Of a DNA stretch of 64,000 bases, positions 49,954 to 57,500 are shown piece by piece; position 1 is the first letter of the stretch; each line of letters opens with the position of its first letter. The notes under the pieces were generated by a model, which had not been told where the DNA came from, did not search any database, and worked only from the letters and a program-made list of their open reading frames with translations. The stretch lies in assembly GCA_963666485.2 (NCBI GenBank), contig CAXXUO010000004.1:96001-160000 (forward strand), written 5' to 3'. Position numbers and translations under genes: made by a program. The stretch is from Syntrophorhabdaceae bacterium (GTDB lineage Bacteria; Desulfobacterota; Syntrophorhabdia; Syntrophorhabdales; Syntrophorhabdaceae).

Positions 49954-50037
49954 AACGGCGTACGGCTAACGGCGGACGGGAAAAACTAAAATGCGAAAGG
50001 TAAACGGCGTAAGGCTGACGGCTGACGGCGTACGGGA
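49954..50037. repeat. Two intergenic 7-bp NACGGCN tandem arrays
   Basis: aacggcg tacggct aacggcg gacggga (from 49954) and aacggcg taaggct gacggct gacggcg tacggga (from 50003). Confidence 0.85.
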
Positions 50038-50170
50038 AAGGCGGTCTGAAATGGGGTGATTTGGGCTGCATGATTTTTAGATGGTTTGTCCAATATAATC
50101 ACATAGTTATCTGTTATACTGCTCATAAAAAGGGTTGACAAGAATATATGGATTGGGCTATGTTAACCGG

Positions 50171-50788
50171 ATGAATCGTGGAAAGCCCTTATACATTGCT
50201 CTCATAACACTGCTTTTCCTCGTGAGCATCCTGACGGCAGGGTTCTGTGCGTCGGGTGTTTTGCGCGAAGATACCCAGTCCGAAAAGACTGAAAAGGCGC
50301 TCATCATCGAGAAGACCGTATCGTATCTCAAGGAACGTAAACCGGGGATCCCCGAGGAACGCGTCAAGATCATAGCGAGCAGCGTCTACGAAGAGTCAAA
50401 GAAGTACGATCTTGACTACCGGCTTGTTCTTGCCATTATGAAGGTCGAAAGCAACTACAAGACAGAAGCGGTATCGAGAACCGGCCGTGGATTGATGCAG
50501 ATAAACCCGAGATCGGCCAAGGCCCTTGCCCGGCAGTCAGGCGTCGAGATCAAGGGTGCAAAATGTCTTCATGAACCGGAAAAAAATATCAAGCTCGGCG
50601 TCAGCTACCTCTCAAGATTGCACAACATGTTCGACAACATAGTGTCTGCACTGCACGCGTATAACGCCGGTCCCGGCAAGGTCCAGAAACCGGAGAACGA
50701 GCAGCAGGCGAAGACCACCTCATTTACTCGCAAGGTCATGAGCGAATATCAGCGGATAGCGGAAGTATTGCCGGATCCGGAAGAGTAA
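50171..50788 (+). CDS. Lytic transglycosylase (SLT domain) with N-terminal anchor
   Basis: AIMKVES, GLMQI, ALHAYNAG; likely start ATG at 50171. Confidence 0.88.
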   Translation: MNRGKPLYIALITLLFLVSILTAGFCASGVLREDTQSEKTEKALIIEKTVSYLKERKPGIPEERVKIIASSVYEESKKYDLDYRLVLAIMKVESNYKTEAVSRTGRGLMQINPRSAKALARQSGVEIKGAKCLHEPEKNIKLGVSYLSRLHNMFDNIVSALHAYNAGPGKVQKPENEQQAKTTSFTRKVMSEYQRIAEVLPDPEE

Positions 50789-50794
50789 AAAGAA

Positions 50795-51288
50795 CGGCGT
50801 ACGGCTAACGGCTAACGGCTAACGGAAAAAATCCCAGTAAATTAATTCGGAAAACAATTCTGACAATTAAGGGATAGGTCTGTGTCAAAGGGGGGATTTA
50901 GAAATCTTAAGGTCTGGCAGCGAAGCAAAGATCTGGCGGTGAGGATATATAGCGTAACAGGTGATGGGAAATTCGAAAAAGATTTCGGTTTGAGAGACCA
51001 ACTGAGGCGGGCCAGCGTATCCATTCCCAGCAATATAGCTGAAGGTGACGAAAGAAATACTGACCGCGAAGCCGTCCGCCATCTCTACATTGCAAAAGGA
51101 TCTGCCGCCGAGTTACTGACCCAACTGATAATAGCCCACGAAATTCGATATTTGGACACGAATTTATTTAAAGATCTCGAAGATGATTGCCTGGCAATTT
51201 CCAGCATGCTTTCAAAATTAATCGCCTCCCGCTCCAAAACTTTCAGAACCGATGAATGTCTTTCCCGTTAGCCGTTAGCCGTACGCCG
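50795..51288. mobile_element. Four-helix-bundle gene cassette bounded by a perfect 24-bp inverted repeat
   Basis: cggcgtacggctaacggctaacgg (50795-50818) is the exact reverse complement of 51265-51288; mobility is inferred. Confidence 0.5.
50882..51271 (+). CDS. Four helix bundle protein (23S rRNA IVP family)
   Basis: FRNLKVWQ, FGLRDQLRRASVSIPSNIAEG, IAKGSAAEL. Confidence 0.92.
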   Translation: MSKGGFRNLKVWQRSKDLAVRIYSVTGDGKFEKDFGLRDQLRRASVSIPSNIAEGDERNTDREAVRHLYIAKGSAAELLTQLIIAHEIRYLDTNLFKDLEDDCLAISSMLSKLIASRSKTFRTDECLSR

Positions 51289-51289
51289 C

Positions 51290-51955
51290 TTACCATTTGT
51301 ACCTATCTTCCATAAACGAATAATACATATACCCAAACCGGTTATACCAATCTTTCTCACCGTAATATTTGGCCTCACACTGGTCGATCTCCTGCAGCAC
51401 GGCTTTCAGTTTATCGGAGAGTTCCTGGTGTTTGTTGCGGTATGCCTTTTCGAAATTCTTGAATGACGCCTCTATCTTGCGCCTTTCCGCCTGCCAGCCA
51501 AGACCTGCCACCCCATGCACGCCCGATACGCTGTCCCCGAACGAAAGGGAACTCTTTGTGAAATCTTCGGTGGCTATCTTGAGTGCCCGGAGCTTTTCGA
51601 AGTTTACTCTCAGCCTGTACAGCTTGTCATATGCGCCTTTATAACAATCCTTGCAGCCGTCCTTCTTCAACTCGTCACAGCTTGTCGGGACCTGGGGCAT
51701 CCCCGGGGGGTTGTAATTCGGGTCCGCCTGCTTGTCGAGGTCGGAAAGAGGTTTGAAACTGTCGAAAAGATTGACGGCGCCTTTCGATATATCCTGTGCC
51801 TGTTTTGACGAGTCATATGCCTTGCCTAAGGTGTCCATACCCTTCCAGAGGTCCTGAATGGGCAATTCGGAAGGGCCGGCAAGGGCACATAACGGTAAAA
51901 CCAGCAATACAGATACAAAAGAAACGACAGTATTTTTTATCATTATCTTTTTCAT
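51290..51955 (-). CDS. Hypothetical exported, helical protein
   Basis: Signal-peptide-like N-terminus, four Cys in the mature part, coiled-coil-like C-terminal half. Confidence 0.6.
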   Translation of the reverse strand: MKKIMIKNTVVSFVSVLLVLPLCALAGPSELPIQDLWKGMDTLGKAYDSSKQAQDISKGAVNLFDSFKPLSDLDKQADPNYNPPGMPQVPTSCDELKKDGCKDCYKGAYDKLYRLRVNFEKLRALKIATEDFTKSSLSFGDSVSGVHGVAGLGWQAERRKIEASFKNFEKAYRNKHQELSDKLKAVLQEIDQCEAKYYGEKDWYNRFGYMYYSFMEDRYKW

Positions 51956-52569
51956 TATCTTCGACCCCGCTTAAGAAATATGATCAGGACGATAAGGATC
52001 GCGGCAAGCAATACGGCAATAATCCAGAGCACTGCCGATCCCATACCGAACCCGCCGCCCATACCGCCCTTCATTTTCTTGTACTCCTCTTTCGGAATGA
52101 AGGCGGGCCTGATAGCCGGCCGGATCTCGTCACCTACCCAGACAACCAGTTGATAGGGCCTCTCACCCTGGGCGGACGCGACAAAGATCTTGAGATCGCC
52201 CTCCGTGCGGAGCTTGAACGTCTGGACGCCTGACCCTTTCGTTGACCCCGACTTCTCCGGCTTTTTCCAATCGAACTTGCACACCTGGAGCGTCAGGTCC
52301 GCGTCCTGGTCCTTCGACAGGAGCGTGACTTCCACCGGCTGCAGGATACCGAGTCCCTCAACGATGAACTTCTCCCCGCCCTGCCCTACGGTTCCCTGCA
52401 AGGCCATGACCTTGCCATTGGGAACCCTGGGGTCCTGCTTCGGCACGATCCTGAATTCCTGGGCCCCTGCATAAACCGGCAAAAGAAAGGCCAGGAGCAG
52501 CAAGAAGGAAAACAACGCGGCCACCGTTCTGCGCAAACACCTGATGTGACGTAAAGGCATTACTTTCAA
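51955..52569 (-). CDS. Hypothetical exported protein with C-terminal membrane anchor; start uncertain
   Basis: Signal-like segment ending VYA; C-terminal hydrophobic helix followed by KRGRR; stop overlaps the next ATG. Confidence 0.6.
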   Translation of the reverse strand: MKVMPLRHIRCLRRTVAALFSFLLLLAFLLPVYAGAQEFRIVPKQDPRVPNGKVMALQGTVGQGGEKFIVEGLGILQPVEVTLLSKDQDADLTLQVCKFDWKKPEKSGSTKGSGVQTFKLRTEGDLKIFVASAQGERPYQLVVWVGDEIRPAIRPAFIPKEEYKKMKGGMGGGFGMGSAVLWIIAVLLAAILIVLIIFLKRGRR

Positions 52570-52723
52570 GGAGCAACTCCTTTAGACATTATTGAAGTTG
52601 AGTTTTGAAATTTATATCCCGCGGGGGAGGAAGTGTCAACAGGGATGCGTTGCTTTATGGTGAGAACTATATGATGTATGACGTACATAGTCAATATCAT
52701 TGAACATAAAGGATAAAAGACAC

Positions 52724-52750
52724 TGGATTCCGGCTTTCGCCGGAATGACG
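52724..52750. repeat. REP-like hairpin
   Basis: tggattccggctttcgccggaatgacg. Confidence 0.85.
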
Positions 52751-52774
52751 GGTGGTTGGTTGGAAAAGAAAAAC

Positions 52775-53169
52775 CTTGTATGATACTCCCCGTGGAATAT
52801 CACGAACAATCCATGATAGAAAAGAGAAAAAGGTTGCCGGTGTGGCAGGCCGTAAAAACCAGGGGATGATATCCCGTATCCAAGCTCGGGCCGCCACACC
52901 TTCTCCTTACAAACCCGGACAGTTGCAGGGGACTCGTACCAGGAGATCCCGCATTGCACAAGGAAGGGACACGGGAAAAAGGGGTGATATCATGGACGAC
53001 GTCTTCATCGGGATCGACATATCGAAAGAGCATTGTGACCTCGCGGTCATACCGGGCGGCACGCAGAAGAGGTTTACAAACGACGAGGAGGGCCACGAGG
53101 CGATCCTTGCCTTCGTACTTCCTCTCAACCCTTCCCGCATCGTCATCGAGGCGTCGGGAGGATACGAGA
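52775..53169 (+). mobile_element. Truncated IS110-family element (left end, bridge RNA region and 5' part of the recombinase)
   Basis: Left junction CT|TGTATGAT, a structured non-coding leader, then a DEDD recombinase N-terminus. Confidence 0.8.
52830..52975 (+). ncRNA. Putative IS110 bridge RNA (boundaries approximate)
   Basis: Stem ggtgtggc/gccacacc encloses TAAAAACCA, hairpin gggat-gat-atccc and ATCCAAG. A second loop contains GGACAGTTGCA, gggactc/gagatccc and ACAAGG. Confidence 0.7.
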
Positions 53170-53231
53170 TGGGAGCAGGGAAAAATTTGGGGGACGTCCT
53201 TAAGAAAGTAAGAAACTCCTCAAACAACTAA
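52992..53231 (+). pseudogene. IS110 recombinase fragment (about 60 homologous codons)
   Basis: MDDVFIGIDISKEHCDLAV...FTND...IVIEASGGYE; similarity ends where a foreign repeat begins. Confidence 0.85.
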
Positions 53232-53401
53232 ACGGACCGCCCTGTCGTTATTATCCCCGGACCGGGTGATTTTAAGTTACTTACTTTCTTAAGGACGTCC
53301 CCTTTGCCTTTATAAGTTACTTACTTTCTTAAGGACGTCCCCTTTGCCTCGGACCGGGTAATTCTAAGTTACTTACTTTCTTAAGGACGTCCCCCTTGCC
53401 T
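53189..53401. repeat. About 37-bp repeat: one forward partial copy and three inverted copies
   Basis: ggggacgtccttaagaaagtaag at 53190; taagttacttactttcttaaggacgtcccc(t/c)ttgcct at 53273, 53313 and 53365. Confidence 0.9.
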
Positions 53402-53404
53402 TTA

Positions 53405-53424
53405 CGGCTTCCGCCGGAATGACG
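53405..53424. repeat. Partial REP-like hairpin lacking its TGGATTC start
   Basis: cggcttccgccggaatgacg. Confidence 0.75.
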
Positions 53425-53475
53425 AGGGTGTGGTTGGATTCCGAATTCCGAGACTGTATCCCAATTCAAAAAGGT

Positions 53476-53598
53476 CGTCATTCCGGCGCTTGACGCCGGA
53501 ATCTAAGGTTTTTCTTTTAGGTCTTTCCATAAAAATGGAACCGGGACAAACTAACAAAAATCAAACCTTGGATCCCGGTGTCAAGCACCGGGATGACG
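53476..53598. repeat. Inverted doublet of REP-like hairpins (REPIN/MITE-like)
   Basis: cgtcattccggcgcttgacgccggaatct ... tggatcccggtgtcaagcaccgggatgacg. Confidence 0.8.
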
Positions 53599-53739
53599 AA
53601 GAAGGCTTATTCGGGCGGGTGTAGACTAACGGCTTACCGCGAGCGGTTTGCGGTGTACGACGAACGAGTGGGTGAGAAATTGTGACACAGCCTTCGCCGA
53701 AGTGCCAGGTAAGGGTAAGTCGTTTCCGTTCGTCCCCAA

Positions 53740-53780
53740 CCGCTCGCCGTTAGCCGTTAGCCGTACGCCGTTAGCCGTTA
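53740..53780. repeat. 7-bp CCGTTAG tandem array overlapping the stop of the FAD oxidase gene
   Basis: ccgctcg ccgttag ccgttag ccgtacg ccgttag ccgtta. Confidence 0.85.
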
Positions 53781-55144
53781 AATATCTTCCCCGGGTTCAA
53801 TATATTATTCGGGTCGAAGAGGGCTTTGATCGACTTCATGGCCGCAATCACGTCGGCGGACAATTCCATATCGAGGTATGCCGATTTCGCTATGCCGATG
53901 CCGTGTTCACCCGAAAGCGTGCCGCCAAGGCGAACAGTCTCAGCGAAGATGTCCTTGACCGCCAGCTCTGCCTTGTGGCGGTCTTCGGGGGTATCTTTTA
54001 TCATGATGCTCACGTGAAAATTGCCGTCACCCGCATGGCCAAAACTCAATATAGGTATCTCGTACTTTTTCTCGAGGGCCTCAAGTATCCGGATCAGAGA
54101 AGGGATGTGAGAACGGGGAACGACCACGTCCTCAGCTATCTTGACCGGGTTCAGATTATACGTTGCCTGGGACAGGACGCGCCGGGCCTGCCACAGTTTA
54201 TCCGCCTCGACCGGGTCCCGCGTCACATCGCACTGCAGGACATTCTGTTCGGCCAATATCGCGCGTATCTTTTCGACCTGCGGCCCTACGGACTCCTCGT
54301 GGCCGTCAACCTCGATAAGGAGCAACCCGCCCACATTCTCGGGCAACCCCATGGGGGAAGCCTTTTCGCTGCAGCGGACGGAAGCCCTGTCCATGAACTC
54401 TATCGTCGACGGTATCACCTTTGCCGCAATGATGGCAGACACGGCCCGGGCGGCATCTTCGACTTCACTGAAGAGCGCGAGTATGGTTGCCTTTGCTTCG
54501 GGCATGGGGAGAAGCTTCACGATGATCTTTGTGATCACCCCGAGAGTGCCTTCACTTCCCACGAAAAGGCGCGTCAGGTCATACCCGACAACCCCTTTCA
54601 TCGTGCGCACGCCCGTGTTGAGGATCTCGCCCGTCGGTTTCACCACCTCGAGCCCGATGACATAATCGCGTGTAACACCGTATTTGAGAGAATTCGGCCC
54701 GCCGGCACACTCGGCGACATTCCCTCCTATGCTCGAATACTTGTACGACGCAGGGTCCGGCGGATAAAAAAGGCCGTACTTTGCCGCTTCCTGCTGGAGG
54801 GCGAACGTGACGACCCCCGGTTCGACGACGGCGATGAGATTCTCCTGGTCTATCTCGAGGATCCGGTTCATTCGCGTGAAAACGAGGATAACACCTTCGA
54901 CAACCGGAGTGGAACCGCCTGTCAGGCCCGTACCGGCCCCCCGCGGGATAACGGGAAACATGTGCTGGTTGGCGAGCTTCAGGATCGCGGACACTTCCTG
55001 CGCTGAGGACGGAAACACGATGAGTTCCGGCACGATCCCGTCCGTTCTGGCATCATACGAATAGCACCTGCGTTCCTCAAGTGAATCGACCACATTCTCC
55101 TTGCCGACTATCTTTCTTATCTCTTCAATGACCCTGCTATCCAC
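53771..55144 (-). CDS. FAD-linked oxidase/dehydrogenase, GlcD / D-lactate dehydrogenase family
   Basis: Likely GTG start at 55144; PRGAGTGLTGG, YPPDPAS, SEGTLG, GHAGDGNFH, SGEHGIG, NPGKIF. Confidence 0.9.
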   Translation of the reverse strand: MDSRVIEEIRKIVGKENVVDSLEERRCYSYDARTDGIVPELIVFPSSAQEVSAILKLANQHMFPVIPRGAGTGLTGGSTPVVEGVILVFTRMNRILEIDQENLIAVVEPGVVTFALQQEAAKYGLFYPPDPASYKYSSIGGNVAECAGGPNSLKYGVTRDYVIGLEVVKPTGEILNTGVRTMKGVVGYDLTRLFVGSEGTLGVITKIIVKLLPMPEAKATILALFSEVEDAARAVSAIIAAKVIPSTIEFMDRASVRCSEKASPMGLPENVGGLLLIEVDGHEESVGPQVEKIRAILAEQNVLQCDVTRDPVEADKLWQARRVLSQATYNLNPVKIAEDVVVPRSHIPSLIRILEALEKKYEIPILSFGHAGDGNFHVSIMIKDTPEDRHKAELAVKDIFAETVRLGGTLSGEHGIGIAKSAYLDMELSADVIAAMKSIKALFDPNNILNPGKIFNG

Positions 55145-55196
55145 GCCGCCCTCTTTAAAGGTTATTTTCAGCGTGAATATAACATATAAAGACCTT

Positions 55197-55316
55197 TGTT
55201 CCAAGTTCCACGTTCCAGGTTCCACGTAAAAGAAATGTACGACTGACGTATCAGTGTTACAATCTCTGCCCGCAGCCATTCTTTAGCGTGGAACCTGGAA
55301 CGTGGAACCTGGAACC
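55197..55316. repeat. Inverted pair of 7-bp TGGAAC(C/G) arrays
   Basis: (n)gttcca x4 at 55197-55224 and tggaac(c/g) x4 at 55289-55316. Confidence 0.85.
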
Positions 55317-55388
55317 GTTCTTACCTTTGTTTTCGTTTGCTTTTTTGCCCATGCACGGGTTATTTTCAATAAATACTCAGGAGGCGGG

Positions 55389-55790
55389 ATGAAAAAGGTC
55401 GCGGTCGCGTTATTGTTGTTTTTTGCAATCTTATTGCTGGCGGGGAACGTTAAGGCGGCACCCGATGCCTTCGACACGGTTGACACGAACAAGGACGGCT
55501 ACATAACGAAGGATGAATTTGAATCGCATATCAAGTCCAGGTTCAAGGAATACGATACGAACAAGGACGGAAAAATAGATGCAGACGAATTCGGGGTTAA
55601 AAAGAACCCTGAAGCAGTCAAAGAGTTTGGATATATGGACAAGAACAAGGACGGTGTCGTCAACGCCGAAGAGTTCTACAGGGCGGCCCTTCAAAGGCGC
55701 GACCAGATGGACCTCAGCAGCGATGGAAAACTAAGTCGGGAAGAATATAATTCAAATAAAACTCTGCCATTCCTGCAATTTTACTTTTGA
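55389..55790 (+). CDS. Exported EF-hand calcium-binding protein
   Basis: ATG after AGGAGG, signal peptide; DTNKDGYITKDE, DTNKDGKIDADE, DKNKDGVVNAEE, DLSSDGKLSREE. Confidence 0.85.
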   Translation: MKKVAVALLLFFAILLLAGNVKAAPDAFDTVDTNKDGYITKDEFESHIKSRFKEYDTNKDGKIDADEFGVKKNPEAVKEFGYMDKNKDGVVNAEEFYRAALQRRDQMDLSSDGKLSREEYNSNKTLPFLQFYF

Positions 55791-55892
55791 CACGTACCGG
55801 GGCAAGGGAATACCGATATCTGCTGCCATAGTTATGGCATGGTCGAACGGTAAACATACCGTCGTCCATATCCGGATAAACATGGCGCCTCT

Positions 55893-57500
55893 ATGAAACC
55901 TGACAAGACACCCGACCAAAAACATATCTTTAGCGCCCTCGGCGACAGTTTCTTTCGCATGCTCTGGATAGCAAACGTGATGTCACTGGTCGGGTCATGG
56001 ATGCATGAGACGGCAGCGGCGTGGCTTATGACGTCGATGACAGTGTCGCCGGTGATGGTCGCCCTGCTCCAGACTGCGATGACTCTGCCCTTTTTCCTCC
56101 TGGCATTGCCCGCAGGCGCCCTGGCGGATATCATCGATCGCAGGAAGATCCTGATCGCCGCACAGACGATAATGCTCCTCGCTGCGTGTGCACTGGGAAT
56201 ATGCACACTGACCGGCGCCGTTACGCCGGTCGTCATCCTCGTCCTGACATTTGCGCTCGCCATTGCGGCGGCGGTCAATGCGCCTACGTGGCAGTCGATA
56301 ATACCGGAGCTTATAACACGCGACCGGCTGCAGTCGGCGGTGACGCTGGGTTCCGTCGCTTTTAACGTCGCGCGCGTTGCCGGCCCTGTTCTCGGTGGTC
56401 TTTTTCTTGCGCTGACGGGCCCTGCATCGGTGTTTTTCATCAACGCACTTTCATTCACGGGCGTGATCTTCGCCCTTATGCGCTGGCGATACAGGCAGCC
56501 GGAGCAGTCTCTCCCGGCCGAGCGTTTTTTCGGCGCGATCAGGACAGGCGTGGGCTATGTCAGGCATGTTCCCCAGGTCAAGACCGTTCTTCTGCGCATG
56601 GCCATCTTTTCTTTCTTCGGCGGCTCCCTCTGGGCGTTCCTGCCAATCATCGCGCGTGTACGGCTGGATCTCAGCCCTTCGGGTTTTGGTTTTCTCATGT
56701 GTTTTTTTGGAATCGGCGGCCTTGCCGGAGCGGCCCTGCTTCCCGTAGCCGGTCAGGCCTTACGGCTTAAAACCCTTGCCAATTGCGCGACCCTGCTCTT
56801 TGCCGCTTCAATAGCCATCCTGTCTTTCTCGTGGCATTTCTGGCTGACATCCCTCGCCCTCGTCATTGGAGGGATCGCCTGGCTGGTCCTCATTTCCACA
56901 TACAATACAGCAATATTGTCCATTGTCCCGTCCTGGGTAAGAGGACGCGTCATGTCCGTATTTATGCTCGTCTTTTTCGGTCCCTTCGCGGTGGGGAGCG
57001 CATTGTGGGGTTTTTTAGGTTCATGGCTGGGGATAACCGCCACCCTCGCGCTGACATCGATCTTTACGGCCCTCGGCACGATCGTAACAATGCGGATGCA
57101 ATTGTCGGAACCGCACGGCATTGACCTGACGCCGTCGGAGCACTGGCCCCAGTTCACAGGTGAGGTCGAGCCCGCCCTTCACGAGGGGCCTATCCTGGTC
57201 GTTGCGGAATATACCATTGATCCGTCCCACATTGAGGAATACCTGAGAGCGGTATCGTCCTTACGAACGATCCGCAGACGGGATGGCGCCTTCAGGTGGA
57301 ACCTCTTCAAGGACGCCGAAGACCCCTACCGTTTCATCGAGTCATTCCTCGTTGAATCGTGGGCCGAATACATGCGGCAAAAGGAACGGTTCACGGTATC
57401 GGACGGCGGTGTTGTCGATACGGTCCGCTCGTGCCAGAAAGACGGCGAGCCCGTAATAATACGCCACTTTGTGGCCCAGCCGCTGAAACGGGAAAAATAA
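55893..57500 (+). CDS. MFS transporter with C-terminal soluble domain
   Basis: About 12 hydrophobic segments, GALADIIDRRK, FNVARVAGP; tail RRRDGAFRW. Confidence 0.88.
   Translation: MKPDKTPDQKHIFSALGDSFFRMLWIANVMSLVGSWMHETAAAWLMTSMTVSPVMVALLQTAMTLPFFLLALPAGALADIIDRRKILIAAQTIMLLAACALGICTLTGAVTPVVILVLTFALAIAAAVNAPTWQSIIPELITRDRLQSAVTLGSVAFNVARVAGPVLGGLFLALTGPASVFFINALSFTGVIFALMRWRYRQPEQSLPAERFFGAIRTGVGYVRHVPQVKTVLLRMAIFSFFGGSLWAFLPIIARVRLDLSPSGFGFLMCFFGIGGLAGAALLPVAGQALRLKTLANCATLLFAASIAILSFSWHFWLTSLALVIGGIAWLVLISTYNTAILSIVPSWVRGRVMSVFMLVFFGPFAVGSALWGFLGSWLGITATLALTSIFTALGTIVTMRMQLSEPHGIDLTPSEHWPQFTGEVEPALHEGPILVVAEYTIDPSHIEEYLRAVSSLRTIRRRDGAFRWNLFKDAEDPYRFIESFLVESWAEYMRQKERFTVSDGGVVDTVRSCQKDGEPVIIRHFVAQPLKREK

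Follow-up and report, generated by a model that had tools for sequence, protein, structure and literature searches.

A left-end bridge RNA gene in the remnant of an IS110-group element, read against the intact copies of its own genome

Can the guides of a bridge RNA be read from the junction of a single, broken insertion element, and does the rest of the genome bear that reading out? The window analysed here is a stretch of 64,000 nucleotides from a Syntrophorhabdaceae bacterium (contig CAXXUO010000004.1 of assembly GCA_963666485.2); at 52764-53169 it holds a structured noncoding segment followed by the start of a DEDD recombinase gene. IS110 bridge RNAs have been known since 2024, when thousands of orthologues were predicted (PMC11208160). 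The favoured reading, held at a probability of about 0.9, is that the bridge RNA gene at the left end of a 1179-bp, IS621-type element of the IS110 group occupies 52777-52991, and that the copy in the window is a dead remnant of that element.

With 52764-53169 as query, its own genome (3.77 Mb, 10 contigs) yields four further copies, on contigs C8, C5, C3 and C2. All four are intact and identical to one another at 1179 of 1179 positions, which suggests recent activity; besides these copies, no further IS110-family genes were found in the genome. The limits of the intact element, and with them its length of 1179 bp, were set by BLAST with one intact copy. The window copy (52777-53178, on the forward strand, as are all features located below) is a 5' remnant of 402 bp, 99% identical to element positions 1-399, that comprises the left end with its bridge RNA and 62 recombinase codons. 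Alignment to the intact copies places a substitution at 52910 (C, for T in the intact copies), in the linker between the two stem-loops described below, and a 3-nt insertion, TAC, peculiar to the window copy, at 52937-52939 in the apical loop of the donor hairpin. Identity breaks off abruptly at 53178, and nothing of the remainder of the element lies near the window copy, which has neither a full recombinase gene nor a right end and so is not a complete element. The noncoding left end measures 212 nt in the intact copies and 215 nt in the window copy; the right end measures 31 nt.

The open reading frame that begins with ATG at 52992 opens with 62 residues (MDDVFIGIDISK...) that constitute the N-terminus of an IS110-type DEDD transposase (52992-53178), after which the frame continues in foreign sequence to a stop at 53229-53231. 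The fragment scores 23 bits against PF01548 (cut-off 29); the intact copies, whose recombinase ORF is 311 aa long, score 93 bits against PF01548 and 69 bits against PF02371. Just two relatives of solved structure were found, the ISCro4 transposase (E 4e-38) and the IS621 transposase (E 1.8e-35). Residues D9, E53, D95, D98 and S233 align with D11, E60, D102, D105 and S241 of IS621 (once the two additional residues at the N-terminus of the PDB chain are allowed for), which are the catalytic residues named by Hiraizumi et al. 2024 (PMC11208158); S233 and G234 stand together, and the window fragment retains D9 and E53 alone. The host belongs to an anaerobic lineage, with Syntrophorhabdus MAGs as its nearest named relatives.

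The junctions of the five copies define where the element sits. In the window, host DNA to the left of the insertion ends in GAAAAAC (52768-52774, the left half of the target, LT), the last six bases of which recur on the 5' side of loop 1 (AAAAAC). The core dinucleotide CT follows at 52775-52776, and the element starts with TGTATGAT (52777-52784), in which TGTAT, the donor's right half (RD), overlaps a -10-like TATGAT (52779-52784). Left junctions read AAAAC-CT-TGTATGAT in five of five copies, with AAAAAC in two of them. Right junctions read ACAGTTG-CT-TGGAT(CCCGG...) in all four intact copies, or more fully ...GAACACAGTTG-CT-TGGATCCCGG... CT is accordingly present at both ends of the four intact copies (5/5 left and 4/4 right junctions over all copies), and occurs singly at 33 empty sites. 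When the two element ends, TGTATGAT and ...ACAGTTG, are compared, they are not inverted copies of each other.

The empty sites identify the target. Uninterrupted AAACCTTGGAT occurs at 33 sites in the genome (1.3 expected), uninterrupted AAAACCTTGGAT at 27 (0.3 expected) and the full 13-mer target, AAAAACCTTGGAT, at 8 (0.07 expected). Every one of the 33 unoccupied AAACCTTGGAT sites continues into the hairpin CCCGGTGTCAAGCACCGGG and then into ATGACG, so that insertion takes place at the left-hand border of a REP-like repeat. Of these sites, one is in the window, at 53563-53599, 390 bp downstream.

The REP-like repeat itself (AAAACCTTGGAT, hairpin CCCGGTGTCAAGCACCGGG, ATGACG) is found at 53460-53611 of the window and at 33 or more sites genome-wide. 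Two of its hairpins face each other in that part of the window, and the facing pair matches Rfam WsnRNA46 on both strands at 55 and 46.6 bits, below the gathering score of 65.3; this is most likely a likeness between palindromic repeats, not a sign of an sRNA. A second type of hairpin (GGATTCCGGC...GCCGGAATGACG) lies at 52724-52762 and again at 53406-53437.

The RNA encoded by the left end can be laid out as a 5' stem-loop and two larger stem-loops with internal loops. The 5' stem-loop, GUGGA ... UCCAU (52792-52814), was recognised by eye in the alignment and is confined to close relatives, in which it reads AUGGA ... UCCAU, one side being changed with the pairing preserved (again by eye, outside the formal count given below). 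The target-binding stem-loop (52839-52900) has an outer stem in two parts (52839-52846 with 52893-52900, and 52848-52851 with 52889-52892) and an inner hairpin (52863-52866 with 52872-52875). Between these lie the left target guide (LTG) UAAAAACCA (DNA TAAAAACCA, 52853-52861), whose AAAAACC is the LT top strand plus the first core base, and the right target guide (RTG) AUCCAAG (52878-52884), the complement of the CT-TGGAT that is found to the right of all four intact copies. In the donor-binding stem-loop (52914-52968) an outer CCC (52914-52916) pairs with GGG (52966-52968), and the inner stem (52929-52932 with 52947-52950) is lengthened, as judged by eye, by CUC (52933-52935) and GAG (52943-52945). 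Here the left donor guide (LDG) is ACAGUUGCA (DNA ACAGTTGCA, 52919-52927), in which ACAGTTGC is the same as the final 7 bases of the right end and the core's first base, taken together, in 4/4 intact copies. The right donor guide (RDG) occupies 52953-52962; its ACAAG (52958-52962) is the complement of CT-TGT, the element starting CT|TGTAT, and a further pairing, of AU (52953-52954) with the AT that comes next, could be made over a bulge of 3 nt. For IS621, RDG and RD are described as pairing discontinuously (PMC11208160).

All four guides follow the strand rules of IS621, in which the 3' side is complementary to the core and the right half (PMC11208160): LTG AAAAACC goes with AAAAAC-C, RTG AUCCAAG with CT-TGGAT, LDG ACAGUUGC with ACAGTTG-C and RDG ACAAG with CT-TGT. 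In LTG and LDG the second core-pairing base is A rather than U, and the core is thus matched at C alone on these sides. Within this genome, the left flanks agree with LTG at 5-6 of 7 positions.

A preliminary description of this DNA, made by a model from the letters of the window, had placed the four segments at 52853-52861, 52878-52884, 52919-52927 and 52958-52962 and the junction at 52768-52784, and each of these coordinates is correct. From the one junction in view it had read AAAAACC as the first guide and ACAAG as the complement of core plus element start (CT-TGT), both of which are borne out base by base, and had proposed AAAAAC-CT-TGGAT as target and ACAGTTG-CT-TGTAT as donor. The left junctions (AAAAC-CT, 5/5), the right flanks (CT-TGGAT, 4/4), the right ends (ACAGTTG-CT, 4/4 intact copies) and the element start (CT|TGTAT) agree with that proposal. 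It had named intact copies as the place to look for such ends and insertion sites, and the four that exist have the ones predicted. Its account of the IS621 donor loop holds in part: GGACAGU is present in the wild-type RNA given in the supplement of PMC11208158, in which the other segment is GCAAGG; the ACAAGG that it gave appears there in engineered variants alone.

The case for the fold is comparative. A minimum-free-energy fold draws the first stem-loop fully and the second partly, and its stability does not exceed that of shuffled sequences (z = -0.97); since single-sequence stability is unremarkable, the structure is argued from covariation. Searching public genomes for relatives of the intact 311-aa recombinase gave 24 loci, from which 14 left ends were aligned, and four helices (23 pairs) were counted in this 14-orthologue alignment. 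Across the 14 orthologues 92.1% of cells are paired, a share that falls to 39.7-51.3% once the partners are shifted by 1-3 columns, and 17 of the 23 pairs have changes on both sides (compensatory changes); none of 500 shuffles reached any of five covariation measures. By helix, two-sided changes are seen in 10 of 12 pairs of the outer stem of the target loop, in all four inner pairs of the donor stem-loop and in one of its three outer pairs. A further helix on the outside, which in the minimum-free-energy fold pairs element bases 13-19 with the stretch ahead of the ribosome site, is lost in close relatives and was discarded as an artefact.

A covariance model, R1, was built from eight distant relatives (one from Chloroflexota, five from Gammaproteobacteria-type MAGs and two from cyanobacteria), with the genome under study and its genus excluded. 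Run on the 3.77-Mb genome, R1 matches the five copies and nothing else, scoring the four intact ones at 62.2 bits apiece and the window copy at 58.7 bits. The match in the window, at 52838-52970 (E about 1e-11 to 1e-13), is its sole match there; every R1 match is full-length, without any flag for a non-standard pair. Over a sample of the family, 4 of 61 genomes are matched, the source genome counted among them; such patchy spread is what a mobile element shows. An Rfam 15 scan of 50000-57000 assigned no family to the + strand of the RNA at E up to 1; Rfam may hold no bridge RNA model.

If the loops are guides, they should change with the host DNA on either side of the element. Free comparison by longest shared word proved too noisy, non-cognate matches running up to 8 nt, and a count in fixed register was used in its place. 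Over seven positions LTG agrees with its own left flank at a mean of 4.9/7, as against 2.07/7 between lineages (n=84, max 6). RTG agrees with the right flank at 5 of 5 positions in the element studied here and in those designated SynPtaB, Chloroflex, Maripro18, Pseudom21 and Cyano14, at 4 in Halothio17, Chromat19 and Anabaena25, at 1 in deltaMFD and at 0 in Burkh20; the mean for non-cognate right flanks is 1.46/5 (n=92, max 3). One locus, L024, was omitted from this tabulation; its RNA resembles that of L017, and its flank, GTTAT, would give 3/5. Four more relatives, in genomes G008, G030, G040 and G039, were scored by eye, each with 5/5 on the right: G008 combines LTG UUUAGACC with a left flank TTTTGAC-C and a right flank CT-GGAAC, G030 has CCGCAAAG with CT-TTGCGG, G040 has AUUACGCCU with CTTACGC-CT on the left and CT-CACGA on the right, and the right flank in G039 is CT-CTCTC. 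In a Syntrophorhabdus MAG the RTG is GUUCCAG, and CT-GGAAC stands to the right of 7/7 copies.

Across relatives, the guides co-vary with the flanks, with two exceptions. The copy in genome G002, whose right flank is TC-GTAAA, fails; the Burkholderiales copy scores 0/5 in fixed register, and TGACC fits one base off. The G002 copy is read as a decaying pseudogene because its recombinase gene is frameshifted. The locus L037 (G002:C15:36400-38400), from a same-genus MAG, is the same record as L015, with a near-identical bridge RNA and a recombinase gene split by frameshifts.

The ends of the element also carry what looks like a divided promoter. In the right end TTGACA terminates 13 nt before the last base, and in the left end TATGAT begins at the third base; joined over the CT core, the two ends would therefore present TTGACA-17 nt-TATGAT, with 11 of 12 consensus matches, as a putative sigma-70 promoter rebuilt across the joint. 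Of 10 elements examined, 7 have the same composite geometry; the other three are gammaproteobacterial and lack a good -35. Promoter reconstitution over joined ends is described for IS110 elements (PMC11208160). A consensus scan of the DNA 5' of the window copy gave no sigma-70 promoter. A 2026 paper on IS621 has its bridge RNA weakly expressed from integrated loci. For the present element, a search of sequencing runs turned up metatranscriptomes with small shares; one metatranscriptome run contained 0 contigs on it, and one raw-read DNA run under the same species label contained 0 element reads among the reads sampled, for which reason that run is no test for circles. Two contig sets, probably from the source sample, contain the element, and no joints were seen in them.

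At 53178 the window copy meets something else. Fused to the broken element is the 3' part (53179-53405) of an unrelated noncoding repeat of ~280-330 bp that has 9-10 copies in the genome and is without an Rfam match. Its other copies reach ~140 bp further left than this one does, so both partners of the joint are truncated. The joint is read as a deletion that fused element position 399 to the inside of the other repeat and that would have taken away 780 bp of element sequence together with the right junction and part of the adjacent DNA; as reconstructed from the intact copies, the remnant has lost 249 of 311 recombinase codons along with its right end and the target's right half. Judged by what it retains, the window copy is a dead, non-autonomous remnant, unable to move, in which the guides of the RNA gene are intact. 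An RNA-guided origin of the truncation was considered and rejected: neither a CT core nor a match to a guide is present at the joint, shared sequence amounts to at most 1 nt, and an AAAC-CT-T in the other repeat sits 3 nt off. The lack of core and guide match is the ground for thinking that the truncation was not RNA-guided. The preliminary description had omitted that this copy is truncated and non-autonomous. Its remaining claims stand: the fragment downstream is that of a DEDD recombinase (a 62-codon N-terminus; 93 bits for PF01548 in the intact copies), the segments occupy internal loops in two stem-loops that are backed by covariation in 14 orthologues, TATGAT, which it likened to a -10 box, would be 17 nt from the right end's TTGACA in the joined ends, and the covariance-model search that it had suggested, run with a model drawn from distant relatives (R1), matches the window at 58.7 bits.

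In G011, a genome of the same genus, the orthologous intergenic region lies between the same pair of genes and contains neither remnant nor adjoining repeat. Set against window 52700-53436, the locus (L039, G011:C161:6500-7000) is without ~740 bp made up of a REP-like hairpin, the remnant itself, the adjoining repeat and another hairpin; still present there are the two hairpins that face each other and an unoccupied AAAACCTTGGAT site. The noncoding repeat, a full copy of which is at L030:245-490 (G000:C2), forms a long imperfect hairpin (GGGGACGTCCTTAAGAAAGTAAG ... its complement) whose 3' arm is tandemly duplicated in variable number, with three arms in the window. Tandem units of 7-8 nt (GCCGTTA, CCTTACG, CCTTTAG, GTTCAAC and GGAACCT/GGAACGT among them) lie at window 53700-53780 and 55198-55315 and, genome-wide, beside repeats and insertion sites; a MIR9408-like Rfam match at 55198-55315 is built of such units.

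For the intact element these features suggest the following sequence of events, in which transcription, RNA-protein binding and chemistry are modelled on IS621. Excision would join the right end to the left end over the CT core, creating the sigma-70 promoter TTGACA-17 nt-TATGAT. The promoter would then drive an RNA of ~200 nt, with its 5' hairpin and two stem-loops with internal loops. The first loop would pair with both strands of the host target AAAAAC-CT-TGGAT at the edge of the REP-like hairpin repeat, and the second would do so with ACAGTTG-CT-TGTAT, formed where the ends of the element itself are joined. Four subunits of the 311-aa DEDD/Tnp recombinase, as a tetramer, would finally swap strands at the CT cores, inserting the circle.

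Before 2024, the structured ends of IS110 elements were viewed as leaders. On that view the left end would be an ordinary 5' leader or small regulatory RNA acting on recombinase translation, with the protein picking the target. The RNA does lie directly 5' of the recombinase start and its ribosome-binding site, the small RNAs of ISPpu9 were formerly held to modulate recombinase expression (PMC11208160), and expression and binding of the bridge RNA are here predictions from sequence alone. Such a leader is nonetheless very improbable: across more than 12 elements the loops change in step with the flanking host DNA while the stems still pair, and the recombinase is clearly homologous to those of IS621 and ISCro4, for which RNA guidance has been solved structurally. 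Still less credible is that the loop-junction matches are fortuitous. In its favour are the shortness of the segments (5-9 nt), an A-rich left flank and the occasional match of a non-cognate word of 8 nt; against this, four segments occupy the expected loops in the expected order and on the expected strand, a prediction from one junction came true at four of four right junctions not seen when it was made, and cognate agreement exceeds non-cognate in fixed register, which in effect refutes coincidence.

What the remnant does now allows of a more serious, if still improbable, alternative to its being dead. It might be an orphan bridge RNA gene, still transcribed and guiding in trans for the recombinase of the intact copies, or its LT-CT-RD might serve as a half-site for RNA-guided rearrangements. 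Its four guide segments are intact, its changes being limited to one linker base and 3 nt of an apical loop, and the model scores it at 58.7 bits as against 62.2 for the intact copies; the IS621 bridge RNA functions in trans (PMC11208160), and half-matching substrates are reported to recombine (10.64898/2026.08.31.748434). Transcription is a difficulty: the upstream scan finds no promoter, the natural -35 was in the lost right end, and the left neighbour gene is on the opposite strand, which makes read-through into the remnant unlikely. Moreover, the same guides are encoded by the four intact copies, so that an additional RNA gene would contribute nothing new, and near-identity to those copies is as compatible with a recent accident as with selection. 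The breakpoint has neither a CT core nor a guide match. Were either form of this alternative true, it would be a first natural step from a transposon guide to a host-resident guide RNA. The dead remnant of a bridge-RNA element is the reading retained.

As new biology the locus carries little weight, IS621-type bridge-RNA systems being already known. It is a clean natural example: a compact element of 1179 bp with a 311-aa recombinase, the target and donor of which are legible from the RNA and can be checked, in one genome, at four identical copies and 33 empty sites. It also demonstrates that guides read off the letters of a sequence, without tools, can be base-exact.

Among known systems the IS1111 group (seekRNA, or right-end bridge RNA) shares the recombinase family and the RNA-guided logic. 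It differs in placing the RNA in a long right end and in having sub-terminal inverted repeats of 7-17 bp (PMC11208160); membership in that group was rejected for the present element, whose right end is 31 nt long and whose RNA is in the left end. The ISCro4 transposase (PDB 9t56) is the best match of solved structure (E 4e-38, over residues 5-302) and was compared by protein alone. IS621 of E. coli (Durrant et al. 2024, PMC11208160; Hiraizumi et al. 2024, PMC11208158) is the closest parallel in design. Both have a DEDD RuvC-like and a Tnp domain with catalytic residues that align, the RNA in a long left end opposite a short right end, a 5' hairpin followed by target-binding and then donor-binding stem-loops, identical strand rules for the four guides with the core within each pairing, a CT core with a promoter rebuilt over the joined ends (here as read from the element's sequence), and a target inside a repetitive extragenic hairpin. 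The donor loops are alike by eye (...CCGGACAGUAUCA... and ...GCAAGG... in IS621, ...CCGGACAGUUGCA... and ...ACAAGG... here), and the LDG of IS621 likewise ends in CA.

The differences from IS621 are of degree. Kinship is distant (the match to the PDB sequence has E 1.8e-35): a DNA search of 5,426 E. coli genomes found ~100 nt of similarity, inside the recombinase gene. A protein search of plasmids returned 2,792 records annotated no more finely than as IS110 family. The recombinase has 326 aa in IS621 and 311 aa here, the target repeats differ, RTG is 4 nt there (PMC11208160) and 7 nt including the core here, and LTG ends in CU there and in CA here. In the choice of site the likeness extends to ISPpu9 and ISPpu10 of Pseudomonas putida (PMC12288879; 10.64898/2026.03.19.712850), which differ in the phylum of the host and in the repeat. 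They too are present in several identical copies, at the same position in a repeated extragenic hairpin (REP), and the abstract on ISPpu10 proposes that the structure of the target is read alongside its sequence.
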